A stretch of DNA of 64,000 nucleotides, taken from an uncultured Bacilli bacterium (GTDB lineage: Bacteria; Bacillota_I; Bacilli_A; RF39; UBA660). The notes below the pieces were generated by a model. It was given only the letters and a program-made list of their open reading frames with translations. It was not told where the DNA came from and made no database searches. Position 1 is the stretch's first letter; every line of letters starts with the position of its first letter. Made by a program: the position numbers and the translations under genes. Where the stretch lies: NCBI GenBank assembly GCA_944358535.1, contig CALVRH010000002.1, positions 27,840-91,839 on the forward strand, in the 5' to 3' direction. Shown one piece after another: positions 4,351-54,246 of this stretch.

Positions 4351-4370
4351 TATTACCACCTAATTAAAAA

Positions 4371-4443
4371 GGTACACACATTTAGAGGACCTTAAGGCTG
4401 CTATCTTCCGATTCTGACCTGGTTCAGCCATAAATGTTGTACC
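4371..4443 (-). ncRNA. ffs: small (4.5S-type) signal recognition particle RNA
   Basis: Reverse complement reads GGTACAACATTTATGGCTGAACCAGGTCAGAATCGGAAGATAGCAGCCTTAAGGTCCTCTAAATGTGTGTACC. It has the conserved helix-8 core CCAGGTCAG..CGGAAG..GCAGCC and a closing stem GGTACA/TGTACC. The locus next to tadA-dnaX matches the Bacillus scr neighbourhood. Ends approximate. Confidence 0.75.
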
Positions 4444-4605
4444 GATAATATAATATAATATTTTTTATAAAATTACAATTGTTTTTAATAAAAACAGTGT
4501 TTTTCCACAGTATTTTTTTTGATGATTTACATAGAATATAAAAAAATTTGCTATATATTTATGTGTATTAAATACATTTTTATTAATTTATACTGAATTA
4601 AATCA

Positions 4606-8402: not shown

Positions 8403-8412
8403 AAGTTACCTC

Positions 8413-11453
<3,041 letters not shown>

Positions 11454-15064: not shown

Positions 15065-15132
15065 AAATATTGATTTTTTGATAATTTTTTGATATAATTG
15101 TGGCAATTTTTATTATAATTTAGGTTTTTAAA

Positions 15133-15161
15133 TTGACAAATGTTAGTTTTATCTATATAAT
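15133..15161 (+). promoter_or_regulatory. sigma-A type promoter of rpmH
   Basis: TTGACA (15133-15138), 17-bp spacer, TATAAT (15156-15161), about 40 bp upstream of rpmH. Confidence 0.6.
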
Positions 15162-15200
15162 TTATAAAGCGATATGAATTTATGTAGGAGGTGTATATAG

Positions 15201-15326
15201 ATGTCTAAAAGAACGTTTCAACCAAATACTCGCAAGAGAAGTAAAAAAATGGGATTTTTTGCGCGAATGAAAGCTGGTATTGTAAGTAGAAGAAGAAATA
15301 AAGGCCGCAAGGTATTATCTCATTAA
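15201..15326 (+). CDS. rpmH: 50S ribosomal protein L34
   Basis: Not in the ORF track because it is short. Translates to [41 protein letters not shown], preceded by AGGAGG. Confidence 0.95.
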
Positions 15327-15329
15327 TTT

Positions 15330-15358
15330 GCCACTGCTGGTGTTGCAGTGGCTTTATT
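15330..15358 (+). terminator. hairpin after rpmH (possible attenuating terminator)
   Basis: GCCACTGC-loop-GCAGTGGC followed by TTTATT. Confidence 0.45.
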
Positions 15359-15379
15359 AGTAATTTATAAGGTTACTTT

Positions 15380-15724
15380 ATGAAGAAAATTAATATTGTT
15401 AAAGAAAATCGAGATTTTAATCGAATTATTAAAAATAATAGGCCTTTTAAGTATAAAGATTATATTATATATATAGATAAAAGGGAGCCTTCTATTTATA
15501 AATTTGGCTTTTCTGTAGGAAAAAAAGTTGGAAATGCGGTTACTAGAAATCGAGTAAAAAGACAAATAAAGAATATTGTTTCCCAAAATGACTATCAAAA
15601 TGATTTTGATTGTATTATAATAGTTGGTAAGGGAATATTAAGTCGAAGTTTTAGTGAAATGCGTGAAAATTTAAATTATGCTTTAAAAAAATTGAAATTA
15701 GTAAAGGAGCGAAAAGATGCGTAA
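15380..15724 (+). CDS. rnpA: ribonuclease P protein component
   Basis: 114 aa, basic, with RNR motif AVTRNRVKRQIKN. Conserved rpmH-rnpA-yidC order. Confidence 0.9.
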   Translation: MKKINIVKENRDFNRIIKNNRPFKYKDYIIYIDKREPSIYKFGFSVGKKVGNAVTRNRVKRQIKNIVSQNDYQNDFDCIIIVGKGILSRSFSEMRENLNYALKKLKLVKERKDA

Positions 15725-16733
15725 AAAATTAGGACTGATATTTATAATTGCAATTTTGACTTTATCTTTATCTGGATGTACGACTTATGTTAAGGATAAA
15801 GATGGTAACCCAGTTAAGGAGACAACGACTGGGCAGACACTTGCTGAAAATATACTTTGTAAGCCAACAAATGAAGATGTACTAAAAACTTATAAGAAAA
15901 ATAAGGTCGATATTGAAGATTTACCTAAGTGTTCTGATTTTACTCCAACATCTGGTGATTATGGTGGTTTATGGGAAACAATTTTTATTAAACCTTTAAG
16001 TTGGTTTATTATTAAGATTGGTGAATTTCTTGGAAATTATGGTGTGGCAATTATTGCTGTTACTTTAATTATTCGTTTGGTTATTTTTCCAATTAGTAAA
16101 AAGTCAGCACTTCAATCTGAAAATATGAGGTTTGCTCAAAAGGATTTAGAAAAACTTGAAAGAAAATATCGTGGTCGTGAAAGTCAAGAAGATCAAATGA
16201 TGAAAGCGCAAGAAATGATGGGAATTTATAAGAAATATGATATTAATCCAATGGCTGGTTGTTTATTTGCGTTTATTCAAATGCCACTTTTCTTTGCCTT
16301 TTTGGAAAGTTTAAATAGATTACCTATTGTTTTTGAGGGTAAGTTTTTGGGATTTAATTTAGGTATGAGTCCTTTTGTTAGATTATTTGGAGGAAGTTTT
16401 GATTTTTCAGCATTTGCAGATAGTTTTACTAATGGTGGTTGGATTTATTTATTACTTCCAATTTTAGTAGGACTTACAACATTCTTCTCATTTAAGTTAA
16501 ATTCTGGTGTTAGTGGTGGAAGTGAAGAACAACAACATCAAATGAAGACTATGATGAATGTAATGCTTGTATTTATTGTAATTACTTCATTTACAATGCC
16601 AACAAGTATTATTATATATTGGATAACTGGTAGTTTATTTACTATTGTTCAAGCTGAAATTATTAGGAGGATGAAAGAAAATGCTAAAGGTGGTACAAAA
16701 CGAATCAAAAAACAAAGAAGAAGCGTTAACTAG
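15717..16733 (+). CDS. yidC: membrane protein insertase YidC/SpoIIIJ (lipoprotein form)
   Basis: Lipobox LSLSGC, five hydrophobic helices and a basic C-terminal tail KRIKKQRR. Confidence 0.9.
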   Translation: MRKKLGLIFIIAILTLSLSGCTTYVKDKDGNPVKETTTGQTLAENILCKPTNEDVLKTYKKNKVDIEDLPKCSDFTPTSGDYGGLWETIFIKPLSWFIIKIGEFLGNYGVAIIAVTLIIRLVIFPISKKSALQSENMRFAQKDLEKLERKYRGRESQEDQMMKAQEMMGIYKKYDINPMAGCLFAFIQMPLFFAFLESLNRLPIVFEGKFLGFNLGMSPFVRLFGGSFDFSAFADSFTNGGWIYLLLPILVGLTTFFSFKLNSGVSGGSEEQQHQMKTMMNVMLVFIVITSFTMPTSIIIYWITGSLFTIVQAEIIRRMKENAKGGTKRIKKQRRSVN

Positions 16734-38094: not shown

Positions 38095-39180
<1,086 letters not shown>

Positions 39181-40209: not shown

Positions 40210-40241
40210 AAGATGACATTATTATAGTGAGGAGGAATTTT

Positions 40242-40517
40242 GTGTTCGATTTAGTATCTAAATTTGATCCGAGTGGTGATCAACCACAGGCAATAGATGA
40301 ACTTGTTAAAGGAGTAGAGGAAGGAAAAAAATTCCAAGTATTATTGGGGGCAACGGGTACTGGTAAGACTTTTACGATAGCTAATGTTATTCAAAAAACT
40401 CAAAAGCCAACGCTTGTTTTAGCTCATAATAAGACACTAGCTGGACAGTTATATGGAGAACTCAAAGAGCTCTTCCCAAATAATCACGTGTGCTATTTCG
40501 TTTCTTATTATGATTAA
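40242..40517 (+). pseudogene. uvrB: uvrB 5' stub 1 (codons 1-91, ends at the element junction)
   Basis: GTG start after GAGGAGG. The 91 codons match the N-terminus of the intact UvrB at 51785 almost exactly and include Walker A GATGTGKT. The stop is created at the junction TATTATGATTA-A. Confidence 0.9.
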
Positions 40518-40569
40518 AATAAAAAAACGTTGAAAAATAAGGTTTTTTGATGTTATTAAATCTATAAAA

Positions 40570-41784
40570 ATGTACAAAAAAATACCAAATTCAGAAGTTC
40601 CTAAATTTAAAGCTACATATACTGATACAATAAGTGTTTATATTGTGCCATCTGACATTGCTGTTGCTATTGAAAATTTGAATGAAAGAGATATAGATTC
40701 TAGGGAATTGGAAAAGCGAATCTCTGATATAAAAAATGAATTGGCATTTTTTTCTGAATTAAATACTAATTGTTTTGATTATATTTTAGTTAATGATTAT
40801 AATATTTATAGTGTAAAAGAATTTAATGATTTTATTTCCAAGACGTTAAATATTAATATTAATAAAGATTTACAAGATAATGATTTTTTGAATTATATTC
40901 CATCTGATATAAAAAAAGAAGTAGATGAATTTGTTACAAAGGCGAAAAAGTCAATTCTATATACTTCATTTGATGGTGACGATATGCATTATTTAAATGA
41001 TATATGTAATGATGTGATAAATAGAGAAGAAATACCACTAAATCCAGAAGCAGCTTTAGGTTATTATGTATCCACTGTAACTCTTGGTGGTACAAAACAA
41101 AAAGTGATGGCAGATTGTTTAACTTTAGAAATGTTATCTGATAAATTGTATGTTTATCGAAATGATGATGTAGATATATCTGAAGGAATTATTGCCGAAT
41201 TGATACTTTGGAATATTATTAAAAATCAAGGCTTTTCTTTTATACATGATGTTAGAAGATTAGAAAATCCTAAAGATGATATTTTAAGTGGAAGTGAACT
41301 TAGCCAATGGATTAGCAGTCAAGATTCTGTGTTGAATCAAGAACTGTTTCACAATTTATTAAATAGTTATATGAAACAAAATCATGAATCAGTTTATATT
41401 ATTGCGAATTTTAAAAATTTTAAACACATTGATTGGGCAAGAGCATATTGTTATGATAGTGACTTATGTCCTATAAGTCCTCAAAACATTCTACCTTTTT
41501 CATTATATAAGAATGATGAAAACAATTATTTAGAGTCTAGATTAAATTTACTAGACAGAGTGAATCAAGTATTTCTATTTATTGATAGATTTAATGAGAA
41601 AGAGGAAATAAAAAATTTAGATAAGTTTTCTTTAGCAGAGTTATATTATTTAAAGGAATATTGCCCTAATAAAATGTTTACTATAATTGGTTGGAATCAA
41701 GCTAATGTTCCAAAATATGACAAAGGTAAAAAATGGTCGTTGACAAGTAAGGAAGATATTAAGGTTAGAAGGTTGGTAAAATAG
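40570..41784 (+). CDS. multidomain protein: guanylate-kinase C-terminal-like segment plus two nucleoside 2-deoxyribosyltransferase/DUF4406-like modules
   Basis: The first ~95 aa resemble the lid/C-terminal part of Gmk (VYIVPSD...FDYILVNDYNIYSVKEF) without a P-loop. Two repeats follow the pattern ILYTSF..IPLNPE..SDKLYVY..SEGIIAEL and VYIIANF..PISPQ..VFLFID..SLAELYY. No clear SD. Confidence 0.4.
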   Translation: MYKKIPNSEVPKFKATYTDTISVYIVPSDIAVAIENLNERDIDSRELEKRISDIKNELAFFSELNTNCFDYILVNDYNIYSVKEFNDFISKTLNININKDLQDNDFLNYIPSDIKKEVDEFVTKAKKSILYTSFDGDDMHYLNDICNDVINREEIPLNPEAALGYYVSTVTLGGTKQKVMADCLTLEMLSDKLYVYRNDDVDISEGIIAELILWNIIKNQGFSFIHDVRRLENPKDDILSGSELSQWISSQDSVLNQELFHNLLNSYMKQNHESVYIIANFKNFKHIDWARAYCYDSDLCPISPQNILPFSLYKNDENNYLESRLNLLDRVNQVFLFIDRFNEKEEIKNLDKFSLAELYYLKEYCPNKMFTIIGWNQANVPKYDKGKKWSLTSKEDIKVRRLVK

Positions 41785-41820
41785 TTTTTTCATGTTATAA
41801 TCAAATATAGGTGTTTAAAT

Positions 41821-42594
41821 ATGAAAATAATAAATAATGATGAAAAAATTAATAATGTGTTAAAAGTTTTTTTACCAACAGTAGAACAAGATTATAGTAT
41901 TTTAAAAGGTAATTTGTTAAAAGAAGCTGAAAAAAGTTTTATTTATGATAATCCTAATGCTTTTGTGATAGGTTTAATATCTGATCAATCGGTTAAAGCA
42001 GAGTTGGCGTGGAGTTTACCTTATAATTTATATAAGAGATTGGGTACTTTTAATTTTAAAAATATAGTACAAAACTTTGATGTTGAGTCTTTAGAAAAAG
42101 TTATCAAAGAAAAGCCTGCATTACATAGGTATCCAAATAGAATGGCGAATTATATATTTTTTGCAATGAAGAAAATATTGGAAGATTATAATAATGATGC
42201 ACAAAAAATTTGGAAAAATCAACAGGCTAGTGTTATTGTGAAAAGACTAGAAGAATTTAAAGGAATTAGTCATAAAAAAGCTTCTCTAGGAACATTAATT
42301 TTAATTCGTGATTTAGGAGTAGATATTGAAGATAAACAAAATATTGATATTGCTTATGATGTACATATTCGACGAATCTTTTTAAGAATGGGTTTGGTTG
42401 AAAAAGATACACAGGAAGATATTATAAATAAAGCAAAGCAAATTAATCCTAAATTTCCTGGCGAATTGACTACTTCATTTTGGGCTATTGGTAGAAAATA
42501 CTGTTTTGCAAATAATCCGAGTTGTGAAGCGTGTCCGTTAAATCATTATTGTAGAGAGTATAAATTGAAAACAACTATGAAAGTGGGTGCGTAA
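41821..42594 (+). CDS. HhH-GPD superfamily (endonuclease III-like) DNA glycosylase homologue with Fe-S cluster loop
   Basis: HhH FKGISHKKASLGTLILIRDLGV, Asp-containing YDVHIRRIFLRMGL (cf. VDTHVxR) and Cys loop CFANNPSCEACPLNHYC. Confidence 0.55.
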   Translation: MKIINNDEKINNVLKVFLPTVEQDYSILKGNLLKEAEKSFIYDNPNAFVIGLISDQSVKAELAWSLPYNLYKRLGTFNFKNIVQNFDVESLEKVIKEKPALHRYPNRMANYIFFAMKKILEDYNNDAQKIWKNQQASVIVKRLEEFKGISHKKASLGTLILIRDLGVDIEDKQNIDIAYDVHIRRIFLRMGLVEKDTQEDIINKAKQINPKFPGELTTSFWAIGRKYCFANNPSCEACPLNHYCREYKLKTTMKVGA

Positions 42595-43174
42595 TTTGAA
42601 ATTAATATTAGCTTCTTCGTCTAAAATGAGAAAAGAAATATTACAAAAGGTTGGTTTGAAGTTTACAGTAATTAGTAGTGATGTTGATGAGCAAACGAGT
42701 GCTAATACAAATGAAGAATATTTGATTAATTTATCTAAATTAAAAGCAAATAAAATTGCTTCATCTTTATCTGAAGGTGTAGTTATTGGGGCTGATTCTA
42801 TGATATGTTTTAATGGAAAAAGAATTGGAAAACCTAAAACTAAAGAAGAAGCAAGTAGAATTTTAAAAGAATTATCTGGGAAAGTTAATTATGCTTTAAC
42901 CGGAGTTACTATTTTGGATTTATATACTGGTAAAAGCGTGTGCTTTTGTGAAAAAACGAAAGTTTATTTTGATGAATTGTCTGATGAGGAAATAGAATGG
43001 TATATAAATAATGAGGAACATATTTTAGAACGTGCAGGATATTCGTTGGCTGGAAAAACAGCAGTGTTTATTCCTAGAATAGATGGAGATTATTATAATG
43101 TTTTGGGTATGCCTATATGTAGAGTTTATAAGGAATTAAAAAAACTTGGTTATAATTTGTCTGATTTCGAGTAA
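42587..43174 (+). CDS. maf: Maf-family nucleoside triphosphate pyrophosphatase
   Basis: LILASSSKMRKEILQKVGLKF..SDVDE, GADSM, YNVLGMP. Start is either GTG 42587 or TTG 42595. Confidence 0.8.
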   Translation: MRNLKLILASSSKMRKEILQKVGLKFTVISSDVDEQTSANTNEEYLINLSKLKANKIASSLSEGVVIGADSMICFNGKRIGKPKTKEEASRILKELSGKVNYALTGVTILDLYTGKSVCFCEKTKVYFDELSDEEIEWYINNEEHILERAGYSLAGKTAVFIPRIDGDYYNVLGMPICRVYKELKKLGYNLSDFE

Positions 43175-43453
43175 AAATATTATTATTGAAAGAAAATAAT
43201 AATATTTTTTTATAAATATTTTTAATTGTAGTGATGTATTGTTGTTTTATACTATTATAAATGATAAAATATCTAATAGCTTTAAAATTAGTGTTATTTG
43301 CTTCAAGTAATATTATTTAGTTATTTTATATGATGTTTAGTAAATTTGTGACTTTTTCGCGTTGCGAAGTTAAAAATAGTCAAAATTTGAGTAAAAAAAT
43401 TAGTGACTTTTTGAAAAAATATGCTGATAATTGTCATAATAAGGAGGGATTTT

Positions 43454-43729
43454 GTGTTCGATTTAGTATCTAAATTTGATCCTAGTGGTGATCAACCAGA
43501 GGCAATAGATGAACTTGTTAAAGGAGTAGAGGAAGGCAAGAAATTCCAAGTATTACTGGGCGCAACGGGTACTGGTAAGACTTTTACGATAGCTAATGTT
43601 ATTCAAAAAACGCAAAAACCAACACTTGTTTTAGCTCACAATAAGACACTAGCTGGACAGTTATATGGGGAACTTAAGGAACTCTTCCCAAATAATCATG
43701 TTTGTTATTTCGTCAGTTATTATGATTAA
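43454..43729 (+). pseudogene. uvrB: uvrB 5' stub 2 (codons 1-91)
   Basis: GTG start after AAGGAGGG. About 93-95% nucleotide identity by eye to the other two copies, with mostly synonymous changes. Same junction stop. Confidence 0.9.
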
Positions 43730-43984
43730 AATAAAAAAAACGTTGAAAAATAAGGCTTTTTAATGTTATTTAATTCATAAAAATGTATAAAATAGTACTA
43801 AAAAAACGAAATAATATAAGCTGAAAACATAGAATTTGTGACCTTTATGCGTTGCAAAATGGAATTACGAATTTTATTAATATGAAACTATAATTTTTTA
43901 TAACATATTTTTGCTTGTGTACATAGCCATTTTATTTTATAAGATGGCTAATTTTTTTTATGGAAAGGAGGGTGAAAAATATTA

Positions 43985-44083
43985 ATGAATGGAAAAATTA
44001 TTGCTGTTGTAAATCATAAATGTGATGTTGGTAAAACTATAATAGTCTTTAACTTATGGGGTAACTTTAACAAATTCTGGTAA
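43985..44083 (+). pseudogene. ParA/Soj-type ATPase relic (32 codons)
   Basis: MNGKIIAVVNHKCDVGKTIIVFNL corresponds to the deviant Walker A KIIAVxNxKGGVGKTT and is then truncated. Good SD. Confidence 0.5.
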
Positions 44084-44178
44084 TTAAGTAAAATCTATAA
44101 ATTATAAAATGAATAGTAAAGATATATGGATATAGATCAGTGTAAATAACCTAAAGTTATTTTTTTTGTGTATAAAGG

Positions 44179-44207
44179 TTGCAAAACTGTTAAAAAAATG
44201 ATATTAT
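44179..44207 (+). promoter_or_regulatory. possible promoter of the E2 operon
   Basis: TTGCAA, 17 bp, TATTAT, 34 bp upstream of the GTG at 44241. Confidence 0.35.
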
Positions 44208-44240
44208 TATTAATAAAATTTTTGTGTTGGGAGTGATTTT

Positions 44241-45650
44241 GTGCCATTATTTTCTATTATAGTACCAACTTGTAATGTAGAAAAATATATAGCTGATTGT
44301 TTAAATAGTATTGTAAAACAAAATTTTAAGGATTATGAGGTAATAATTGTCGATGATGGTTCGACTGATAATACTTTGAATATTGTTACTGGATTTTGTG
44401 ATAAATATGATAATTTTTATTTATTTAAGGAAGAACATAATGGTGTTTCTACTGCACGAAATATTGGATTAAATAAATCTAAAGGACACTATATAATGTT
44501 TTTAGATGGTGATGATTTTATTGATTCTAATAGTTTACTTTATATTTCTAAGATTATTACTGCCACTCATAAAGATGCTTATGTATCAAATTTTAAAACA
44601 GTTAATAGTGATGACTGTGATAGACAGTTATATGATCGTCAAATAGATTATAAAATGATTGATGAAAGAAGAATGTCTGCTGTATTGGATTATATAAAGA
44701 TAAGTAAGATAATTTTTACAGTTTGGAGATTTATAGTAAAAAGAGATTTAATCTTAAAATATAAATTATTTTTTATTAACGGTATTGTTCACGAAGATGA
44801 AGAATGGACTGTAAAAATGTTATGTCATATTAAAAATTTATATTATATAGATATAAAATACTATAATTATAGATTACATAATAATTCTATAACTACTTCA
44901 TTAAATTTATTCAATGTTTTTTGTTATTATGACATTGTTACAATATTGACAAAATATGCTATTTTAGAAAAAGTAAAATATAAAAAAGATTTTTATTTGT
45001 TTTATGCAAAAAAATTATCAAAATATGCGACTAAATTGATTTCGAGTGTTTATAATGATAATGCGAAAAAAGTAAAAAAGAAAAATATAATAATTTTTGG
45101 CGGTAGTAGATGTGGTAAAAGTACATTAGCTAGAAGAATTTCTAGAAAATTTAATTATAATTTAATATCTTTAGATTTTTTAATTACAGCCTTTCAATAT
45201 GGAATGCCGAATTTAAACATTAATCATTTGCGGAGAGATGAAGTTATGTTAAATGATATTTTTAGTTTTATGTATAGTTATATTAGAGCTTTAAATCATG
45301 ATAGTAAAAATTCTTATGATGTTAATTATGTGATAGAAGGATGTTATTTAAAATTAGATGATTTTGTTGAGAAGTTTAACATTAATAATTTTATGATAAT
45401 TGTTTTGGGATATGATGATAGTGCTACTCAATTATTTAATGATATAAGAACTCATGATACTATAAAAGATTGGACAAAAGATTTATCTGATGAAGATTTA
45501 TTAAAGTATTGTAATAGGGTAATTGAAGATTGTAAAAAATTAAAAGAATATTGTTTAAAAAGAAAAATTCCATATTTTGATATGTCTGGTGATAGAAACG
45601 AAAAAATTTTTTCAATAATAGATAAGGTAAGGATAGAAAATGGTTTATAA
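44241..45650 (+). CDS. family-2 glycosyltransferase fused to a P-loop kinase-like domain
   Basis: GT-A motifs FSIIVPTCN, VDDGSTDNT, LDGDD, HEDEEW. The C-terminal ~200 aa has Walker A FGGSRCGKSTLA. Confidence 0.65.
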   Translation: MPLFSIIVPTCNVEKYIADCLNSIVKQNFKDYEVIIVDDGSTDNTLNIVTGFCDKYDNFYLFKEEHNGVSTARNIGLNKSKGHYIMFLDGDDFIDSNSLLYISKIITATHKDAYVSNFKTVNSDDCDRQLYDRQIDYKMIDERRMSAVLDYIKISKIIFTVWRFIVKRDLILKYKLFFINGIVHEDEEWTVKMLCHIKNLYYIDIKYYNYRLHNNSITTSLNLFNVFCYYDIVTILTKYAILEKVKYKKDFYLFYAKKLSKYATKLISSVYNDNAKKVKKKNIIIFGGSRCGKSTLARRISRKFNYNLISLDFLITAFQYGMPNLNINHLRRDEVMLNDIFSFMYSYIRALNHDSKNSYDVNYVIEGCYLKLDDFVEKFNINNFMIIVLGYDDSATQLFNDIRTHDTIKDWTKDLSDEDLLKYCNRVIEDCKKLKEYCLKRKIPYFDMSGDRNEKIFSIIDKVRIENGL

Positions 45651-46737
45651 TTATGAAACAATAAATAAGTATTTAGATGAAATAAAAAAAACAGAAGGCA
45701 TATCATTACAAACAATAAATTATCAACATAATTCAATAAATGGAATTTTATTTAAATGTAATAAAAAGAAATTTTTTAAAATTATTTCTAAAGATGAAGC
45801 AATGAGAGAAAGAAATTCTATCAAAATATGTAGTTCAATTTTTCCAGTTATGCCACAAACTGATGTGTATTGCTTTAATGAAAATTTATGCCTAGTTTTG
45901 TATGACTATGATATAAATGTAGGGTTAAATAAAGGACTTTTAAATGATTATTTTGTTATTAATGATTTTAAGAAAACTTTTGATGAAGCACCCATCAATA
46001 AACTTCTCTGTTTTTATAAAAAAAGTTCACAGAACTCGCAAAAAATCACAAAAGCTCCAATTGATATTTTCTTTCGAGAAAGAGTGCATTCAAGATTGAA
46101 CAATTGGTATAAAAACAATAATGATTTTTATAAAACCGTGATTGTTAATGGGGAAAATAGTGTTACTACAGAAAAAATTATTAAAGAGACTATTTCTTAT
46201 TTTCAGTTAGAAAAAGCACATGATGGCTTTATCACTCAAGGTGATCATAATGTATTAAATTTGTCAATTACTTCATATTTTTTTGATGTTAGTTCGGCTG
46301 GTTATAATTATGCTATTGGAGAATTTGCAATGTGTTTTATATCTATTTTGTTTTTTGATCAATATATTTGTCCAAAATATCATGAAGAGTCTTATAAAAA
46401 TCATGAAAAAATATTTGAAACTTTAAATAATTATAAGCCCAAAATAAATTATAATCTATATAAGGAAAACATTGTGATTAATTGTGAATTTAGAATAAGT
46501 AAAATTAGAAGGGCATATATTTTAAAATTTCTTGATATTGTAAAAGATTTTGATATATATGATGATTTGATTTATTTTGTTATAATGAGATTGCTTTGTA
46601 TATTTAACATTAATACTTTTGATAGTGATGACTATTATTATATATTGTTTTTAATACATTGGTTTTATTTAAAATTGTCTAATTTGAATTATAATAAGTT
46701 AAAAAATTTGATACTAAAAATGAATCTTTTGGATTGA
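45640..46737 (+). CDS. APH/choline-kinase-like phosphotransferase
   Basis: Putative catalytic loop ITQGDHNVLN (HxDxxxxN-like), followed by FFDVSSAG (metal-binding Asp). N-lobe Lys/Glu candidates FFKIISKDEAMRE. Confidence 0.45.
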   Translation: MVYNYETINKYLDEIKKTEGISLQTINYQHNSINGILFKCNKKKFFKIISKDEAMRERNSIKICSSIFPVMPQTDVYCFNENLCLVLYDYDINVGLNKGLLNDYFVINDFKKTFDEAPINKLLCFYKKSSQNSQKITKAPIDIFFRERVHSRLNNWYKNNNDFYKTVIVNGENSVTTEKIIKETISYFQLEKAHDGFITQGDHNVLNLSITSYFFDVSSAGYNYAIGEFAMCFISILFFDQYICPKYHEESYKNHEKIFETLNNYKPKINYNLYKENIVINCEFRISKIRRAYILKFLDIVKDFDIYDDLIYFVIMRLLCIFNINTFDSDDYYYILFLIHWFYLKLSNLNYNKLKNLILKMNLLD

Positions 46738-46775
46738 GTTAAGTTAATTTATTGAAGAAAGGGGTCAAGTAATGT

Positions 46776-47492
46776 ATGAAAAATGATATAATTATTACAG
46801 GTGGGGCGAATGGTATAGGATTAGAATGTGCAAAATTATATAAATCTAAAGGATATAATGTTTTTGTTTTAGATATTGATAAAGTAGAAGGAAAAAAATT
46901 GTCGAAATATGGGATACATTATTATGTTTGTGATGTTTCATCCGAAGATGATGTAAATTACATTGCTAATTTAATGTTGCCGCAATTGAATCAATTAGTT
47001 GCTATTATTAATTGTGCGGCAATTCAAATTGAAGAAGATTTTGAATGTTATAATCAAAAAAAATGGCAAAAAGTTATAAATACAAATTATTTTGGTGTAT
47101 GTAATGTAATTCATGCTTTTTTTAAATTTTTGTCTGAAGGTTCTACAATTTTGAATTTAATTTCTGTTCATTCAGTTAAACCGCGAACAAAAAAATATGC
47201 TTATGATTCTTCAAAGAGTGCAATTGAAATACTAACAAAAGAACTTGCATTAGAATTTGCTCCCCATAAAATCACTGTTAATGCATTATCATTTGGTGCG
47301 GTGGAGACAGACATGAATAATACTTGGCTAACTCATAGTGAACAAAGAGAAATAGCTAGAGCTAAAGTACCGTTAAAAATTGTTTTTAATCCTGTGCAAA
47401 TTGCAAATTTTACATATGTGATAATAAAAGTATTTTCTAAATATACAACAGGTTCAGTTTTTGTTATTGATGGTGGAAGAAGTTTAACTTAA
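46776..47492 (+). CDS. short-chain dehydrogenase/reductase
   Basis: TGGANGIG cofactor motif, NCAA, catalytic YDSSK. Confidence 0.8.
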   Translation: MKNDIIITGGANGIGLECAKLYKSKGYNVFVLDIDKVEGKKLSKYGIHYYVCDVSSEDDVNYIANLMLPQLNQLVAIINCAAIQIEEDFECYNQKKWQKVINTNYFGVCNVIHAFFKFLSEGSTILNLISVHSVKPRTKKYAYDSSKSAIEILTKELALEFAPHKITVNALSFGAVETDMNNTWLTHSEQREIARAKVPLKIVFNPVQIANFTYVIIKVFSKYTTGSVFVIDGGRSLT

Positions 47493-47521
47493 ATAACTGT
47501 ATTATGAAAGGAAGATGTTTT

Positions 47522-47974
47522 ATGAATATTAGAGTACGTGGAATTGTTGTTGAAAATAATCATTTATTATTGATAAAAAGGGTGCGAATGGAAAATAACA
47601 AAGAAAATATTTATTATGTTTTTCCAGGTGGTGGTTTAGAAACTGGCGAAACTTTGGAGGAAGGAGTTAAAAGAGAAGTTTTAGAAGAATTGGGAATTGA
47701 TGTAGAGGTGCAAGATATGAGATACCTTGAAAATTTTAAGCATACTGATACTTATTTCTTTAATTGTAAGTGGATTAGTGGAAATTTAGGTACAGGTAAA
47801 GGACCTGAATTTACCTCAAAAGAATATGAAAATAGAGGATTATATATTCCTATGGCTGTACCTATTTCCGAGCTTTCTAAATTAAATGTCGTACCTAGTG
47901 AGGTCAGAGATTTAGTTGTAAATGATTATAAAAATAAAGAAAAAGGTGATTCTGGTTGTATCAAATTTCGTTAA
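47522..47974 (+). CDS. Nudix hydrolase
   Basis: Complete Nudix box GGGLETGETLEEGVKREVLEELGI. Confidence 0.8.
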   Translation: MNIRVRGIVVENNHLLLIKRVRMENNKENIYYVFPGGGLETGETLEEGVKREVLEELGIDVEVQDMRYLENFKHTDTYFFNCKWISGNLGTGKGPEFTSKEYENRGLYIPMAVPISELSKLNVVPSEVRDLVVNDYKNKEKGDSGCIKFR

Positions 47975-49164
47975 ATGGTTTAGATGGCTCTGGTAAAACA
48001 ACTCAATACAGTTTGTTAAAAAAGAATTTTTACTATGCTTATTTTTCTAATGATATTTCAAAATATAATGTTTTTCCTAATTTAAAGGGTGACAATTTTT
48101 TTAGATGGTGGTTTTTAGAAAGTTCATTGGATGAGTTTTGTGATTCAATTTATAAAGGAATCAAATTAAGAAATGATGATTCTTTGAATCAACAAAAAAA
48201 AATAGTTTTTAATGATAAAGGTATTTTTACTTTTGATTGTAGAATTCTAGCTAATTTTTTATTAAGGGGTTATTCAAATGAAAATATTAATCAGTTTATA
48301 AGAGAATATAAATCAAAATATGAAATTGAAAATGAGGATTTGTCTGTTTTTTTGAATGTTTCTGATACTTCTAAATTAAATTCTAGAAGAAAAAATAGAA
48401 ATGTTGATTCTCGGAATTCTTATGATGATTATTATGAACAATATCAAAACAAGTTGTTAGAAGTGACTAATGGTTTATTATATCAGAGTGATATAAAATT
48501 AATTAATGCGAACGATAAAATTGAAAATGTCTTTAAAAATTTATTCAACTTGTTTATTGGTAATGAACAACAATTTATATTTGTTTCTGGAGTATCTGAA
48601 TCAGGTAAAAGTACAGCTTCAGAATATTTGAGTATGAAGTTACCTAATGCGATACATGTTAAAATGCGAGATATTTCTGATGAATTATATCGAAATTCAA
48701 ATAGTAAAGAAGAAAAATATATATGGATGCGTGAACAAGAAAAGTATTCACCTTATAAATTTTGGTTTGATTTTTTGATGTTAACATCTGCTTATACAAA
48801 AAATAATCAGATCATAATAATGGATACATTGCATGGAATATCAGCTGCACAGTATATGAAAAAAATATTAGGTGATCGTTTATCTATATTATATATTGAT
48901 GCTTTATTTAATAATAGGGTTAATAGAGAATATAATAAATTAAAGTTAAAAGGTGAAAATTGTAGTATTTCAGATATTGCGAAAAGAACCGAAAAAAAAG
49001 ATATTGCTAAAGCAAAATTTGGACTATTGTCAATAAAGAAATTACCATATACTTATATTTTAAATAATGATGATGATTTTTATAGTTTTGAAAAAAAATT
49101 AGATGTTTTTGCTAATTATATTTTAGGAGAACAGGAAAAAAATAAATGTATAGTGAAAAAATAA
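47956..49164 (+). CDS. two-domain P-loop kinase (thymidylate-kinase-like N-domain plus a second nucleotide-kinase-like domain)
   Basis: LNGLDGSGKTTQ (Tmk-type GxDGxGKTT) and a second Walker A VSGVSESGKSTA. TTG start follows AAAAGGTGA. Confidence 0.5.
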   Translation: MYQISLNGLDGSGKTTQYSLLKKNFYYAYFSNDISKYNVFPNLKGDNFFRWWFLESSLDEFCDSIYKGIKLRNDDSLNQQKKIVFNDKGIFTFDCRILANFLLRGYSNENINQFIREYKSKYEIENEDLSVFLNVSDTSKLNSRRKNRNVDSRNSYDDYYEQYQNKLLEVTNGLLYQSDIKLINANDKIENVFKNLFNLFIGNEQQFIFVSGVSESGKSTASEYLSMKLPNAIHVKMRDISDELYRNSNSKEEKYIWMREQEKYSPYKFWFDFLMLTSAYTKNNQIIIMDTLHGISAAQYMKKILGDRLSILYIDALFNNRVNREYNKLKLKGENCSISDIAKRTEKKDIAKAKFGLLSIKKLPYTYILNNDDDFYSFEKKLDVFANYILGEQEKNKCIVKK

Positions 49165-50051
49165 AATATTCATTTATAATTCCAACATATAATTCTGAAA
49201 AAACTATATTTAAATGTTTGAATAGTGTTTTAAATCAAGAAAATTGTGATTATGAGGTTTTGATTATTGATGATGGTTCGACCGATAATACTTTGAATAT
49301 TGTTACTGAACTTTCAAAAAAAAATGATAAAATCAAAATAAAAAAGAATAGTCATAAGGGAATTAGTGAAATTAGAAATATTGGTATATGTAATAGTATT
49401 GGTGATTATATAATTTTTGTGGATTCTGATGATTATGTTAATCCTGAATTACTAAGTGTCTTAAATAAATATGATGATGACGTTATTAAATTTTCTGTTT
49501 TTTGTAGTAATGGTGGTGATAGATTTGTTCAGCCTAAATTTATATCAATTACTGGTATGGAATGTTTAAAATTGTTTTGTAATAGTGAAAATATTTTTGC
49601 TACACCATGGGGTTATGCTTTTAGGAGGAGTTTGTTTTTAAATAATAAATTATTTTTTTTAAAAGGAAAAACGCATGAGGATTTTGGCTTAATACCTTTG
49701 GTGTTAATTTATGCTAAGACTGTTAGTAGTATAGAATATGTTGGATATAATTATATTAAACGTGTTGGAAGTATTACTCAGGAAACTGAGTATGAAAAAG
49801 AAATATCTAGAATGTATGATTTTATTGATCAATTTTGCTTTGTAATTGGTAGTCTTAATAATATGGATATTGAACAATCATACAAAAAAATTTATAATGA
49901 TTATTTTATAAATAGATTATATATAAAAATTAATAATTTTAAACGTAATATAAAAGAATATTATGATTATGATGAGGTGGTAAAAAAATGTTGCAAAAAA
50001 ATCAATACGTTTTTGATAAAACAAAAGTTGAATTACCGGAAATTTACATAA
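49146..50051 (+). CDS. family-2 glycosyltransferase
   Basis: FIIPTYN, IDDGSTDNT, VDSDD, HEDFG. Confidence 0.75.
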   Translation: MYSEKIKYSFIIPTYNSEKTIFKCLNSVLNQENCDYEVLIIDDGSTDNTLNIVTELSKKNDKIKIKKNSHKGISEIRNIGICNSIGDYIIFVDSDDYVNPELLSVLNKYDDDVIKFSVFCSNGGDRFVQPKFISITGMECLKLFCNSENIFATPWGYAFRRSLFLNNKLFFLKGKTHEDFGLIPLVLIYAKTVSSIEYVGYNYIKRVGSITQETEYEKEISRMYDFIDQFCFVIGSLNNMDIEQSYKKIYNDYFINRLYIKINNFKRNIKEYYDYDEVVKKCCKKINTFLIKQKLNYRKFT

Positions 50052-51172
50052 AAAAACTTAATGAGGTTGTTGAGCAAGCTATTAAAATTTTTAAAAATAA
50101 TTTAAAAAGTATAATTTTAGGTGGTTCTGGCGGGAAGGCTGAAATTATTCCATATTGGTCTGATTTAGACATATATATTGTATTAGATGAATATAATTTT
50201 TCTCAGGTGCAAACATTTATGAAGGTTGATAATAAATATGATGAAATTCATGTTGGTGTAACAATATATACAATGGATGAAGTGGTAAATAATTTGATTG
50301 ATGGAAAAACAAAAGTTATGATTTATGAAAAGGAACAATTAAATGTTGATCCAACCCTTTATGGAAAAAATTATTTTTTAAAACAAAAGTATACTGACAT
50401 ACAACTTAATGATATTAATAATTTGCCTAGTATTGTTCATTCTTGTAGAAGAAATTGCATTGATTTAGAAAATAATGAAGTGACCTTATTAAAGTCGCAT
50501 GTAAAAAAGTTTATTGTTATGTTAAAATGTATTTTAAATATTAATGGAATATTTTCTTATGGATATCAAAAGGTTATGAACGATTTTTACAATTTGTGTG
50601 AAGAAAAGAAATTGTTGAATAAAAGGATACTTAATTTTAAAATTAAAGAGGTTACTTCAAAAAATTATAATTTGAGTGAAGCAAAAGAAGATTTTTTAAA
50701 TATAAATAAATTTGTTTTTGAAAACTTATTAGAACTAATAAATAAAAAAATTAATAAGAGTGAGCAGGTTATATCTTGTATGGGTGTTGTTTCTTGTAAA
50801 AAAAACAATGACATATATGTTGCTCTATTACGGGATGTTAATAATTGTTGGGTTATTCCAAAAGGACATTTGGAAAAAAACGAAACATTTATAGAAGCGG
50901 CAATTAGAGAGGTAAAAGAAGAAACTAATGTAGATATCACCACTCATGATTTTGTAGATAAGGTTGGAGAATATAAATATTGTTCTAATCTTGAAGGAAC
51001 TATGAAATTAATAAAAATTTATTTATTTAAAGTTGATGAATTTCAACCGATTGTTCCTTCGGTTAAAGAAAGTTTTGTGGATGGAAAGTGGTTATTATTG
51101 AGAGAAGCCATAGAAAAAAGTACATATCAGGAGCAAAAATCTGCTTTAGAAAAAATAGAATTGATGTTATAA
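49988..51172 (+). CDS. Pol-beta-superfamily nucleotidyltransferase fused to a Nudix domain
   Basis: N-terminal GGSGGKAEIIPYWSDLDIYIV (GS-x-DxD NTase signature). C-terminal Nudix box KGHLEKNETFIEAAIREVKEETNV. 64-nt overlap with the preceding gene. Confidence 0.6.
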   Translation: MLQKNQYVFDKTKVELPEIYIKKLNEVVEQAIKIFKNNLKSIILGGSGGKAEIIPYWSDLDIYIVLDEYNFSQVQTFMKVDNKYDEIHVGVTIYTMDEVVNNLIDGKTKVMIYEKEQLNVDPTLYGKNYFLKQKYTDIQLNDINNLPSIVHSCRRNCIDLENNEVTLLKSHVKKFIVMLKCILNINGIFSYGYQKVMNDFYNLCEEKKLLNKRILNFKIKEVTSKNYNLSEAKEDFLNINKFVFENLLELINKKINKSEQVISCMGVVSCKKNNDIYVALLRDVNNCWVIPKGHLEKNETFIEAAIREVKEETNVDITTHDFVDKVGEYKYCSNLEGTMKLIKIYLFKVDEFQPIVPSVKESFVDGKWLLLREAIEKSTYQEQKSALEKIELML

Positions 51173-51216
51173 AAATAAATTGAATCCCGAAATTTGAATA
51201 AAGAAAAAAATGTCAA

Positions 51217-51256
51217 AAAGCTATGATAAATAATAAAAGTATTATAGCTTTTTTTG
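51217..51256 (+). terminator. terminator of the E2 operon
   Basis: AAAGCTATGATA-loop-TATTATAGCTTT followed by a T-run. Confidence 0.55.
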
Positions 51257-51311
51257 TGATAAGATATCATTGAAGAGTGATAATTTGAAAAATAATTATA
51301 TTGTTCATTGA

Positions 51312-51561
51312 TTTAGACATATACGCAACAATGCTATAAAATAAAAGTTTTTGTGTAAAAACTGTTTCTCTTATGTTAGGACACAGTTCTACAATAATTA
51401 CAACAGATGTTTATTATGATAAGAGTTGTTTAGTAATTGATTTAACTGAGGAATTAAATAGGTATATAGATAAGGTAAAACCGGTTAATAAAATTAACAA
51501 AGATGTAGTTGATGTTGCAACGAATTTTAATAAAATATTTAAAGAATTTCAGTTAGTATGA
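51312..51561 (+). pseudogene. tyrosine recombinase (integrase) C-terminal relic
   Basis: VKTVSLMLGHSSTIITTDVYYD matches the integrase C-terminal box (LGHSSxxxTxxxYxH, catalytic Tyr). An upstream FRHIRNNAI (cf. LRHTxAT) lies in another frame, and the rest of the gene is absent. Confidence 0.6.
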
Positions 51562-51784
51562 CATGAGTAGTTGTGTTAATTTATTATAAATGATAAAATA
51601 CATAATAGCTTGAAATTATTGGTGTTATTTAAGTTTATTTAATGCTATTTAATGTTGTTTTGTGTTATTTAGTAAGTTTGTGACTTTTATGCGTTGCAAG
51701 ATTAAAATTTTGAAAAAAACGGTGGATATTTGTATTTTTGCAACGAATTTAATGGTTAGTAGTAGTCATAGTGAGGTGATAAAA

Positions 51785-53734
51785 ATGTTCGATTTAGTAT
51801 CTAAATTTGATCCGAGTGGTGATCAACCACAGGCAATAGATGAACTTGTTAAAGGAGTAGAAGAAGGAAAAAAATTTCAAGTATTACTAGGGGCAACGGG
51901 TACTGGTAAGACTTTTACGATAGCTAATGTTATTCAAAAAACGCAAAAACCGACACTTGTTTTAGCTCACAATAAGACACTAGCTGGACAGTTATATGGG
52001 GAACTCAAAGAGCTTTTCCCAAATAATCACGTGTGTTATTTTGTCTCATATTATGATTATTATCAGCCAGAAGCTTATGTGGCTAAAACTGATACTTATA
52101 TAGAAAAAGATGCTTCAATTAATGATGAAATTGATGAACTTAGACATTATGCGACTGCATCACTTTTAGCTCATAAAGATGTAATTGTGGTGGCCTCTGT
52201 TTCTTGTATATATGGTATTGGAGAGATTGAAGATTATAAGAAAAAAGTTTTATTTTTAAGTGTTGGAGAGACTGTAGATAGAGATCAAGTCATTGAAAAA
52301 TTGATTGAAATGCTTTATGAGAGAAATAATATTGATTTAAAACGTGGTACTTTTAGAGTCCATGGAGATGTTTTAGAAATTGTTCCTATTGGGCAGCATG
52401 CTCATGGGATTAGAGTAGAGTTTTTTGGTGATGAAATTGATAGAATTAGTGAGTTTGATTTAGTTACTGGAACTTTAGTAAACGATAAAAAAACTTATAC
52501 ATTATTTCCCGCAAGTCATTTTGTTACTAATGATGAAAAATTGAAGATTGCTATTGAAAATATTAAGAAAGAATTAGAAGGGCAATTAGAAAAGTTTCAA
52601 AGTGAAAATAAGTTACTTGAGTATCAAAGATTAAAAGAAAGAACTAATTATGATATTGAAATGCTTTCGGAAACAGGTTCTTGTAGGGGAGTAGAAAATT
52701 ATTCAGCACCACTCGCTTTAAGAAAACCAGGAGAGATGCCAACAACTTTAATTGATTTCTTTGGTGATGATTTTTTGCTTGTTGTCGATGAATCTCATGT
52801 TACATTACCACAAGTTAGAGCTATGTACAATGGAGATAGAATGCGTAAGCAAGCTTTGGTTGATTATGGTTTTAGACTTCCTAGTGCACTTGATAATAGG
52901 CCTTTAAAGTTTGAAGAATTTGAGGGTAAAATTAAACAAGCAATATTTGTTTCTGCAACACCAGGAGATTATGAGATGGAAAAAGTTCATAATAAGGTTA
53001 CTGAACAAATTATAAGACCAACAGGTTTATTAGATCCAAAAATTGAGGTTAAACCGACTAAAAATCAAATAGATGATTTAGTTAGTCAAATACATAAACA
53101 AATAGAGAAAAATGAAAGAACTTTAATTACAACTTTGACAATTAGAATGGCTGAAGAATTATCGGTTTATTTGAAAAATTTAGATATTAAAGTTGCTTAT
53201 TTACACAATGAGATTAAGACTTTAGAGAGAATGCAGATAATTCATGATTTGAGGGTTGGTAAATATGATGTGGTTGTTGGAATTAATTTACTTCGTGAGG
53301 GAATAGATGTTCCAGAAGTTAGTTTGATTGCAATAATGGATGCGGATAAACAAGGATTTTTACGAAGTGAACGTAGTTTAATTCAAACAATTGGTAGAGC
53401 TGCTCGTAATGCGAATGGTAGAGTTATCATGTATGCGGATGAGATAAGTTCAGCTATGGATGCAGCTATAAAGGAAACTAATAGAAGAAGAAGTATTCAA
53501 GAAGCATATAATGAAAAACATGGTATTATTCCAAAAACAATTATTAAAGAAATACGTGAAGTTATCTCTAATAAGTTTGAAATTAAAGAGAAAAAAGAGA
53601 AAAAGATGACTAAGAAAGACAAAGAAAAATTGATGTTTGATTTAGAACATGAAATGAAAGAGGCAGCTAAGAATCTTGATTTTGAAAGAGCTATGGAGCT
53701 ACGTGATGCATTATTTGAGATGCAAAGTGAATAA
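51785..53734 (+). CDS. uvrB: excinuclease ABC subunit B
   Basis: 649 aa with [16 protein letters not shown], helicase motifs and a C-terminal UVR domain [16 protein letters not shown] at 51785 follows GTGAGGTGA; the ORF-track N-terminal extension is non-homologous. Confidence 0.95.
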
Positions 53735-53762: not shown

Positions 53763-53820
53763 GCTTTTCATTCTTTTGTTTCTTAAGCTTGAATATGCTA
53801 TAATGTAGGTGGTGACAAAT

Positions 53821-54246
53821 ATGCATAAGAGTAAGTATAATTTTATGAAGTTTATCGATTGGATAATTAGAATATTAGGTTATACAGTAATTTTAATGTT
53901 GATGACTTTAGTTTTTAAAAATACTTTATATATTGATAATTCATATTATGGTTTATGGTGTTTGATTGCTTCTGTACTTATTTATTTACTTAATAAAACA
54001 GTTAAACCTTTTTTGATATGGCTTACTATTCCAATTACAGGGGTTACTTTAGGGTTGTTTTATCCATTTATTAATTTAATTATTTTAAAAATAGTGAGTT
54101 TTATATTGGGAGATCATTTTAATTTATATGGTATTTGGTTTGCGGTATTAGTGGCAATTTCAATTTCTGTTTTAAATGTTATTTTAGATATGACTGTATT
54201 TAAACGTTTGACATTTAAGGAGGCAAAAAATGAAGCCAATAATTGA
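53821..54246 (+). CDS. PF04020 (holin-4-like, YvlD-type) membrane protein
   Basis: Four TM helices. Extended -10 TGCTATAAT at 53796-53804. ATG at 53821 follows AGGTGGTGA. Confidence 0.55.
   Translation: MHKSKYNFMKFIDWIIRILGYTVILMLMTLVFKNTLYIDNSYYGLWCLIASVLIYLLNKTVKPFLIWLTIPITGVTLGLFYPFINLIILKIVSFILGDHFNLYGIWFAVLVAISISVLNVILDMTVFKRLTFKEAKNEANN

Follow-up and report, generated by a model that had tools for sequence, protein, structure and literature searches.

A 64,000-nt stretch of contig CALVRH010000002.1 from an uncultured Bacilli bacterium of the chicken gut (hereafter the window) carried, within a decayed genomic island named E2, an operon of seven genes (p1 to p7; 44241-51172, all on the + strand) that represented a horizontally mobile cassette of cytosolic enzymes confined to uncultured gut Firmicutes. 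The parts of this cassette, drawn from well-known superfamilies and combined in a logic resembling known activation-and-transfer cassettes, had one chemistry in common, that of nucleoside-diphosphate-linked compounds. The cluster was conserved, under selection and mobile, and held two orphan enzyme families. Literature searches found no description of it and no curated family covered its gene set, in agreement with an earlier reading of the letters alone (the sequence-only reading), which had proposed an undescribed system. The explanation favoured here, tentatively and as something short of probable, is that the cassette synthesises, recycles and consumes a compound linked to a nucleoside diphosphate (NDP-X), X being most likely a sugar that is handed on by glycosyltransfer.

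The seven open reading frames (ORFs) were co-directional and tightly packed, with junctions of -11, +38, +11, -19, -19 and -64 nt from p1 to p7, as the sequence-only reading had described. That reading had counted eight genes, one more than its own list of seven items: no ORF of at least 60 aa lay between the left end of E2 (43729) and 44241, and in either arm of E2 the only one of that size was a 62-aa recombinase remnant. Its tally of four kinase modules, two Nudix domains, one nucleotidyltransferase, two GT-A glycosyltransferases and one short-chain dehydrogenase/reductase (SDR) was correct. No transmembrane-like segment was seen, and all seven proteins look soluble, as had been judged by eye, because no 19-residue window exceeded a Kyte-Doolittle value of 1.61. 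Catalytic motifs were intact in every gene, and dN/dS ranged from 0.12 to 0.43 against three orthologous blocks at 54-88% identity; the genes thus appear functional and under purifying selection on an otherwise dead island. At this A+T content, scanning for promoters and terminators gave nothing informative.

Two of the proteins were glycosyltransferases of family GT2, each with the family profile and a DxD motif. In p1 (469 aa, 44241-45650), the GT2 domain (residues 1-270; PF00535, 4e-32, 111.8 bits for a cut-off of 23.3; DGD at 89) was fused to a P-loop, nucleoside-monophosphate (NMP)-kinase-like domain (271-469; Walker A GGSRCGKS at 287), while p6 (301 aa, 49146-50051) was a second GT2 (PF00535, 6e-32, 111.3 bits, same cut-off; DSD at 93) that shared 39% identity with the GT2 domain of p1. 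PDB sequence matches of p1 included chondroitin synthase, GalT1, TarS (5tze, 2e-21) and TarP (6h1j, 4e-9). Its C-terminal half gave weak AAA_18 and adenylate-kinase-like matches, among them adenylate kinase 3umf over the full length (E 0.01).

The protein p2 (365 aa, 45640-46737) was assigned to a family of small-molecule kinases of the APH/eukaryotic-like-kinase fold for which no Pfam model existed. It matched no Pfam, NCBIfam, PADLOC or PHROGs family, its lone PDB sequence match was spurious, and the APH/choline-kinase profile (PF01636) did not recognise it. The predicted fold and the catalytic residues nevertheless argued for this assignment: the AlphaFold model (pLDDT 87, pTM 0.87) matched APH(3')-Ia, APH(4), AmiN, methylthioribose kinase and N-acetylhexosamine kinase at a Foldseek probability of 1.0 (TM 0.4-0.5 for APH(3'), APH(4) and AmiN), and the sequence displayed K47, E57, QGDHNVLN at 200 (QGDxxxxN) and FFD at 214, with K47, E57, D202, N207 and D216 invariant across the family.

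The last protein, p7 (394 aa, 49988-51172), had two parts: residues 1-255, a predicted nucleotidyltransferase of the Pol-beta type that includes a helical domain, and residues 260-394, a Nudix domain like that of Ap4A hydrolases. For the N-terminal half, NTP_transf_2 (PF01909) scored 16.8 bits, under its cut-off of 21, and the family profile found nothing among PDB sequences. Motif and modelled fold (AlphaFold pLDDT 83) both pointed to the Pol-beta type: GGSGGK-x8-SDLD was invariant in 12 family members (alignment A1), and Foldseek aligned the half with the spectinomycin adenylyltransferase AAD(9) (6sxj, 8e-8, 269 columns, TMt 0.50). The C-terminal half was closest to Ap4A hydrolases (Foldseek TMt about 0.8) and matched PF00293 (4e-12, 46.7 bits, cut-off 21.1), its Nudix box being present with the last G replaced by N. 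A complete Nudix box at residue 43 and a PF00293 match (9e-15, 55.4 bits, same cut-off) were also found in p4 (156 aa, 47504-47974; PDB 3id9 at 2e-10), so that both proteins carried the profile and the box GX5EX7REUXEEXGU.

Two P-loop kinase domains made up p5 (402 aa, 47956-49164). Searched as profiles against the PDB, the N-terminal half (GLDGSGKT) resembled thymidylate and deoxynucleoside kinases (thymidylate kinase, 6e-8), and the C-terminal half (GVSESGKS) was AdkA/UPF0200-like (3lw7, 9e-9). The thymidylate kinase equivalog TIGR00041 reached only 32.9 bits for a cut-off of 83.25, with the P-loop alone aligning, and the family of the N-terminal half had DKG in place of the DRY of thymidylate kinases (alignment A4, by eye); this domain is probably kinase-like and not a thymidylate kinase orthologue. 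The three P-loop domains of the operon (p1 C-terminal, p5 N-terminal and p5 C-terminal) were all NMP-kinase-like and not recent paralogues of one another. The remaining protein, p3 (238 aa, 46776-47492), was a classical SDR (PF13561, 1e-42, 146.7 bits; TGGANGIG at 8, YDSSK at 143) and accessory, its orthologue being a pseudogene in one related locus (L002) and missing in another (L001). All domain assignments of the sequence-only reading stood, at profile level for GT2, SDR and Nudix; for p2 and the p7 nucleotidyltransferase, Pfam, NCBIfam, PDB and family-profile searches stayed below threshold, and motifs with AlphaFold and Foldseek alone settled the folds.

The p2 family was rare: it returned 17 matches in 5.8 billion clustered sequences and 319 representative clusters in 1.84 billion proteins, and p7 returned 32 matches in 5.8 billion sequences, only some of them with the nucleotidyltransferase domain. 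A scan of 185,579 species genomes yielded 29 loci. All were in metagenome-assembled genomes (MAGs), from chicken, rabbit, human and rumen samples, and their hosts were uncultured Bacilli or Clostridia of the gut. Altogether, related clusters amounted to about 30 non-redundant loci, all in uncultured gut Firmicutes and at differing chromosomal sites. The seven-gene arrangement of the window recurred in at least three other species at 55-88% identity (L001/L011, L002/L010 and L040/L041), each time at a different chromosomal site.

Mapping the domains of the seven proteins onto all fetched loci showed a conserved core of APH-fold kinase, nucleotidyltransferase, Adk-like kinase and Nudix. Variable parts comprised the thymidylate-kinase-like domain, GT2, SDR, a histidine phosphatase, a lactonase-like propeller and three families of their own (A7, A8 and A10). 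The domains were fused in many combinations: GT2 with nucleotidyltransferase (L008, L016; P0015, P0017, P0019), nucleotidyltransferase with Nudix (p7 of the window), the thymidylate-kinase-like domain with nucleotidyltransferase (L031, L034, L036), GT2 with kinase (p1), kinase with kinase (p5) and GT2 with Nudix (P0028-P0032). Among 34 long members of the APH-fold kinase family, 7 were fused to Nudix, 3 to HAD/UMPH-1 phosphatases and 3 to BtrH_N-like domains. Such varied fusions point to one pathway and not to a set of independent genes, and those of the kinase family to Nudix and pyrimidine-5'-nucleotidase/HAD domains, together with the NMP-kinase-like domains and the two Nudix domains, agreed with the nucleotide-centred chemistry proposed earlier.

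The three additional families lacked Pfam and PDB matches and had homologues in 4-13 loci (L014 2166-3302, L014 3299-4120, L008 2780-3400). A7 (380 aa), found in variant clusters, displayed invariant HCxxC and HGHxE motifs; A10, a domain of 270 aa, was joined to the Adk-like kinase where clusters had no GT2; and A8 was a 200-aa protein encoded between kinase and nucleotidyltransferase. Guesses at their nature, by eye for A7 and A8, were dropped: A7 as GalT/HIT-like had no PDB or Pfam support, A8 as nucleoside-diphosphate-kinase-like reached an hhalign probability of 3% with no PDB match, and A10 as a cryptic GT-A or a second APH-like domain reached 0.1% and 1.3%.

The operon lay in the second of two tandem islands inserted within the 5' end of uvrB, so that direct repeats of the target gene stood at both ends. 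A 300-nt segment (about the first 100 codons) occurred three times in the window at pairwise identities of 87-92%, all on the + strand: truncated copy 1 (40218-40517) bounded E1 on the left, truncated copy 2 (43430-43729; 92% identical to copy 1) separated E1 from E2, and copy 3 (51761-52060), the right boundary of E2, was the only one continuing into a full-length uvrB (51761-53734, with the UvrB domains). E1 (about 40517-43430) and E2 (43729-51760) belonged to one element family, as their end sequences were shared: 74 nt at the left ends and about 200 nt at the right ends. The mobile-element setting suspected in the sequence-only reading was thus borne out by the uvrB triplication, the shared ends and remnants of an integrase and of ParA.

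E2 itself was decayed and immobile, with the operon as its cargo, since it retained only a ParA-like fragment and the C-terminal codons of a recombinase, with no intact recombinase gene. Its left arm (43729-44240, + strand) held the 74 nt common with E1, one 26-nt motif (43835) and the ParA-like remnant (32 aa, 43985-44083). The right arm (51173-51760, + strand) held the approximately 200 nt common with E1 and, within the 62-aa ORF at 51373-51561, about 30 final codons (...LGHSSTIITTDVYYD...) of what we take to be a tyrosine recombinase, by likeness to the Phage_integrase C-terminal motif, Pfam giving no match; the arm then ran into the functional uvrB. The same decayed layout was present in three other metagenome contigs encoding an identical UvrB. 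Every contig with an identical UvrB had both islands; no empty uvrB site, and so no insertion polymorphism, was found in other strains. Across p2, identity reached 99% with a contig of 5 kb from 'Candidatus Coprosoma intestinipullorum', a chicken-gut MAG placed in Bacillota incertae sedis.

The 26-nt motif (TTTGTGACyTTTwTGCGTTGCrAnAT) occurred three times (43345-43370, 43835-43860 and 51677-51702), near the right end of both islands and also, in E2, near the left one. Its role may be that of an arm site for the recombinase or of an element-borne regulatory site of uvrB.

Mobility of the cluster was also displayed elsewhere. In L038/L039 it was carried within an element that had a large serine recombinase at each end and also encoded TnpV, NikA, ParB and a relaxase. 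In L013, an uncultured Clostridiaceae MAG, the cluster split mnmA (tRNA 2-thiouridylase) and was bracketed by a direct repeat of 688 nt at 98.5% identity (9093-9777 and 15126-15813), which has the look of a recent insertion that duplicated a long stretch of its target. Among 134 flanking ORFs sampled from the non-redundant loci and scanned with PADLOC and Pfam, large serine recombinases were the most recurrent family (7 of 134), and Phage_integrase occurred three times. A phage, plasmid or viral origin received no support: tblastn found no p2 relatives in GenBank phages or PLSDB plasmids, and scans of IMG/VR with the kinase and nucleotidyltransferase family alignments were both empty.

Neither the neighbourhood nor the proteins pointed to defence. 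The flanks consisted of recombinases and housekeeping genes, with no defence family more than three times among the 134 flanking proteins, and window proteins searched against PADLOC and PHROGs gave superfamily-level matches only (generic Nudix, nucleotidyltransferase and P-loop entries of PADLOC-DB 2.0: PDC-S07, PDC-S09 and VakA at 3e-8). Flanking radical-SAM proteins matched the PADLOC pVip model at 2e-18; no viperin model appeared among the NCBIfam matches listed (the best 25 of 93 for the L005 protein), and general MoaA-like similarity best explained these matches. Flippase, polymerase, priming transferase, LCP ligase and canonical sugar-nucleotide genes, by which a capsule, exopolysaccharide or teichoic-acid locus would be recognised, were absent around the operon and from the recurrent flanking families. 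The survey of related blocks therefore placed them in neither defence islands nor wall-polysaccharide loci and agreed with the earlier judgement that this was no standard capsule or teichoic-acid locus. The sequence-only reading had itself preferred DNA-base hypermodification or a nucleotide-based conflict system, and this preference was not supported: no signature, DNA-binding or effector domain was found in the operon proteins, the PADLOC and PHROGs matches were generic, and viral relatives were lacking.

For the tentatively favoured NDP-X cassette, we infer the substrates and the order of steps as follows. The APH-fold kinase p2 would convert X to X-phosphate, and the nucleotidyltransferase half of p7 would couple it with a nucleoside triphosphate (NTP) into NDP-X. 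The N-terminal half of p1 and p6, both GT2, would then move X to an acceptor, with release of the nucleoside diphosphate (NDP). The NMP-kinase-like modules, two in p5 and one at the C-terminal end of p1, would re-phosphorylate the released NMP or NDP, the Nudix domains (p4 and the C-terminal half of p7) could split NDP-X into NMP and X-phosphate for control or proofreading, and the SDR would tailor X. In this way, a mobile element could glycosylate a host structure without the sugar-nucleotide pathways of the host.

This scheme gives a role to every gene and every fusion, and several observations support it. The fusions are those expected of consecutive steps, and Nudix substrates by definition join a nucleoside diphosphate to some moiety X. 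The other enzyme types turn on the same compounds: kinases form phosphate esters and recharge nucleotides, a nucleotidyltransferase uses up an NTP, and GT2 enzymes take NDP-sugars and give off NDP. Anomeric sugar kinases (N-acetylhexosamine 1-kinase, methylthioribose kinase) were among the fold neighbours of p2, and the GT2 domains resembled enzymes that glycosylate polymers or proteins, namely chondroitin synthase, TarS, TarP, GalT1 and SpsA. Among viral proteins, the best structural match to p2 was gp311 of Bacillus phage G (TM 0.56, E 2e-9), which sits in what looks like a sugar-activation neighbourhood; the second carried a guanylyltransferase annotation. Remodelling of a wall glycopolymer by mobile GT2 enzymes, the alternative named in the sequence-only reading, lies nearer to the evidence than the reading preferred there and gains from the TarS/TarP/GalT1/SpsA likeness and from the gp311 module.

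Known systems offered partial precedents. The pairs AmgK/MurU and NahK/GlmU start from a sugar-1-phosphate formed by an APH-fold kinase, from which the partner nucleotidyltransferase makes the UDP-sugar. The N-acetylhexosamine 1-kinase NahK was among the p2 fold neighbours, although identity to these systems was only 9-12%, the operon nucleotidyltransferase had a different fold and there was no recycling context. TarP and TarS, acting on the wall teichoic acid of S. aureus, are likewise soluble GT2 enzymes (GT-A) that can ride mobile elements and remodel a wall polymer; they act alone on host UDP-GlcNAc, whereas the operon GT2 enzymes are embedded in or fused to kinase, nucleotidyltransferase and Nudix modules, with no teichoic-acid genes near the operon. 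NadM-Nudix (NMN adenylyltransferase and ADP-ribose pyrophosphatase) also fuses a nucleotidyltransferase to a Nudix domain hydrolysing a related dinucleotide, and both operon Nudix domains matched its NCBIfam model weakly (26 bits, far under the cut-off of 418); NadM is a HIGH-motif nucleotidyltransferase, in contrast to the Pol-beta type of p7.

In phages, gene groups for a sugar kinase, a nucleotidyltransferase and glycosyltransferases are described as a means of diversifying surface polysaccharides (PMC7824862). These jumbo-phage clusters, that of phage G included, are mobile cassettes like the one proposed here: a kinase is paired with a nucleotidyltransferase, a phosphatase and glycosyltransferases, and the whole is read as an autonomous supply of NDP-sugars for glycosylation. 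They differ in the type of nucleotidyltransferase, which is RmlA-type by annotation in phage G, of the HIGH superfamily in the clusters of PMC7824862 and Pol-beta, ANT-like in the operon. On top of this, the operon has an SDR along with two Nudix and three NMP-kinase-like domains, and it lies on a chromosome rather than in a phage. In phage G (JN638751; L044 8188-15141), the uncharacterised kinase-fold protein gp311 lies beside the HAD phosphatase gp310 and the glucose-1-phosphate thymidylyltransferase gp309 in a stretch bounded by the alpha-glucosyltransferases gp306 and gp313, with a dCMP deaminase, a thymidylate synthase and a 396-aa Nudix protein 4-16 kb away. The gp306-gp313 stretch has the look of a module for sugar activation; its target, be it DNA or a wall polymer, appears to lack an annotation. 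No sequence similarity of the operon to this cluster was detected, and the phage G glucosyltransferases showed none to the GT2 profile.

Several points weigh against the NDP-X scheme. We know of no Pol-beta-fold nucleotidyltransferase that makes NDP-sugars, and a canonical RmlA/GlmU-type enzyme was absent from every locus. GT2 was missing from about half of the cluster variants, which had the A7 and A10 proteins instead, and these showed no GT-A signal. Three or four kinase modules exceed the needs of nucleotide recycling, the SDR was classical and not of the extended type usual for NDP-sugar tailoring, and no acceptor, transporter or wall-polymer gene was linked to the cluster. The likeness to gp311 was structural only (hhalign probability 0.2%). 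The top PDB neighbours of p2 and p7 were antibiotic-modifying enzymes, which may reflect PDB bias or real function.

If the scheme holds, this would be the first case known to us in which a Pol-beta (ANT-like) nucleotidyltransferase and an orphan APH-fold kinase supply GT2 donors, and mobile elements of uncultured gut Firmicutes would carry a complete, host-independent glycosylation kit, able to alter surface antigens, phage receptors or spore coats. Under any of the explanations, two protein families without Pfam models and a conserved neighbourhood of about 30 loci are defined.

The main rival, possible though on the unlikely side, is a modified-nucleotide pathway that would turn a nucleoside or nucleotide into a non-canonical NTP or a dinucleoside polyphosphate. 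The APH-fold kinase, the thymidylate-kinase-like domain and the Adk-like domain would act as a ladder of successive kinases, with nucleotidyltransferase, Nudix, SDR and GT2 tailoring or controlling the product, which might be an antiviral or antimicrobial agent or else a signal borne by mobile elements, by a logic analogous to that of viperin with its nucleotide kinase. The three separate NMP-kinase-like domains, which are not recent paralogues, would find a use here, as would the fusions of the kinase family to Nudix and to pyrimidine 5'-nucleotidase and the Ap4A-hydrolase-like half of p7. The cluster core persisted where GT2 was absent, and one cluster (L006) sat with Ham1, pyrophosphatase, nucleoside phosphorylase and further Nudix genes. 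The MoaA-like radical-SAM and CYTH genes directly upstream of the L005 cluster, and the pVip match at 2e-18 of flanking radical-SAM proteins, have been counted on the same side, although the pVip matches are best put down to general MoaA-like similarity. Against this rival, no effector, sensor or regulator was present, the 134 flanking proteins gave no defence-island context, the two polysaccharide-type GT2 enzymes are left unexplained, and we know of no APH-fold nucleoside kinase. Were it true, the cluster would embody a new enzymatic route to antiviral or antimicrobial nucleotides.

At L005, the upstream genes (6440-8840) encoded a 614-aa fusion of a LysR regulator with a MoaA-like radical-SAM domain and then a CYTH triphosphate-tunnel protein, directly upstream of the kinase-nucleotidyltransferase pair; this arrangement was seen at one locus.

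A broader proposal, that the cluster belongs to a novel class of mobile pathways for immunity or warfare through a small molecule, is unlikely. Its own ladder of kinases, the ANT-like nucleotidyltransferase and control by Nudix would then yield a non-canonical, possibly glycosylated nucleotide or NDP-linked compound. Were it correct, the compound would poison the replication of a phage or competitor, or act as a signal, in a functional parallel of viperin with its nucleotide kinase built from enzymes unrelated to that pair, including two families without a curated model.

A salvage or house-cleaning island for the nucleotide pool, in hosts assumed to be genome-reduced and with E1 adding related functions (Maf, HhH-GPD), is rather less plausible still. 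NMP-kinase-like and MutT-like domains did occur together in the cluster, Maf and an HhH-GPD glycosylase were encoded on the adjoining E1, and Ham1, Nudix and nucleoside phosphorylase genes were neighbours in L001 and L006. The most distinctive parts (APH-fold kinase, nucleotidyltransferase, GT2 and SDR) would however stay unexplained, E1-type genes co-occurred with the cluster at no other locus, and the kinases had diverged too far to count as equivalogs of canonical ones (TIGR00041, 33 bits versus 83).

Modification of a xenobiotic, in which the ANT-like nucleotidyltransferase, together with the APH-like and zeta/CPT-like P-loop kinases and the glycosyltransferases, would inactivate an aminoglycoside- or nucleoside-type antibiotic, appears improbable. 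Tn4451-type elements usually carry resistance genes, and the cluster was indeed found on a mobilisable element with TnpV and serine recombinases; the top PDB folds were APH(3'), APH(4), AmiN and AAD(9), and a variant kinase had matches to Zeta_toxin and CPT. To our knowledge NCBIfam includes the NCBI resistance-gene models of the APH and ANT type; it gave no match for p2 or for the nucleotidyltransferase half of p7, only Nudix models matching the latter protein. Further, 7-10 conserved and variously fused genes kept down to 35-40% identity are pathway-like and not a resistance array, and the Nudix and NMP-kinase-like domains would have no role in drug inactivation. A precedent exists in muraymycin self-resistance, where the phosphotransferase Mur28 and the nucleotidyltransferase Mur29 act on the same hydroxyl of a nucleoside antibiotic (PMC12710036). 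As in the operon, a kinase and a nucleotidyltransferase are encoded together, and in muraymycin producers the two share one small-molecule substrate; Mur28/Mur29 belong to an actinomycete biosynthetic cluster and have no Nudix, NMP-kinase or GT2 partners.

Hypermodification of DNA bases, by which the operon would phosphorylate and glycosylate bases in DNA, is very improbable: kinases, nucleotidyltransferase and GT-A enzymes do occur in phage hypermodification pathways, the analogous phage G cluster has annotated alpha-glucosyltransferases near dCMP deaminase and thymidylate synthase genes, and a DNA glycosylase-like gene lies on E1, but no window protein matched PF18748 (5-hmdU DNA kinase) at E<=0.01, no TET/JBP, hydroxymethylase, DNA-binding or DNA-transferase domain was found in the operon proteins, the kinase was without phage or IMG/VR relatives and the nucleotidyltransferase without IMG/VR relatives, and the GT2 enzymes resembled polysaccharide and teichoic-acid transferases.

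The neighbouring island E1 carried three genes on the + strand (40570-41784, 41821-42594 and 42587-43174). The first encoded a 404-aa orphan without Pfam or PHROGs match, whose residues 12-89 weakly resembled guanylate kinase in its C-terminal part. The other two products were an HhH-GPD/endonuclease-III-like protein, with an Fe-S motif, and the nucleotide pyrophosphatase Maf; these products likewise act on nucleotides or DNA. Such genes were considered as partners of the cluster and rejected, as they co-occurred with it at none of the other loci.

To the left of E1, a gene at 38095-39081 (- strand) encoded a protein of collagen-triple-helix repeats that ended in a C1q-like domain, much as BclA exosporium proteins do; its 9-nt periodicity accounted for a large direct-repeat family and for a local G+C peak of 0.42. 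Since BclA-type collagen-repeat proteins are usually glycosylated, it is a conceivable acceptor for the GT2 enzymes.

The G+C content was 23-30% across most of the window. The GC skew switched sign near position 15000, where the large ORFs, putatively dnaA, dnaN, recF, gyrB and gyrA, had the size and order expected for these genes. The sole Rfam match in the window was a small SRP RNA at 4356-4453 (- strand). Just downstream of uvrB, a gene at 53809-54246 (+ strand) encoded a holin-superfamily-IV-like membrane protein.

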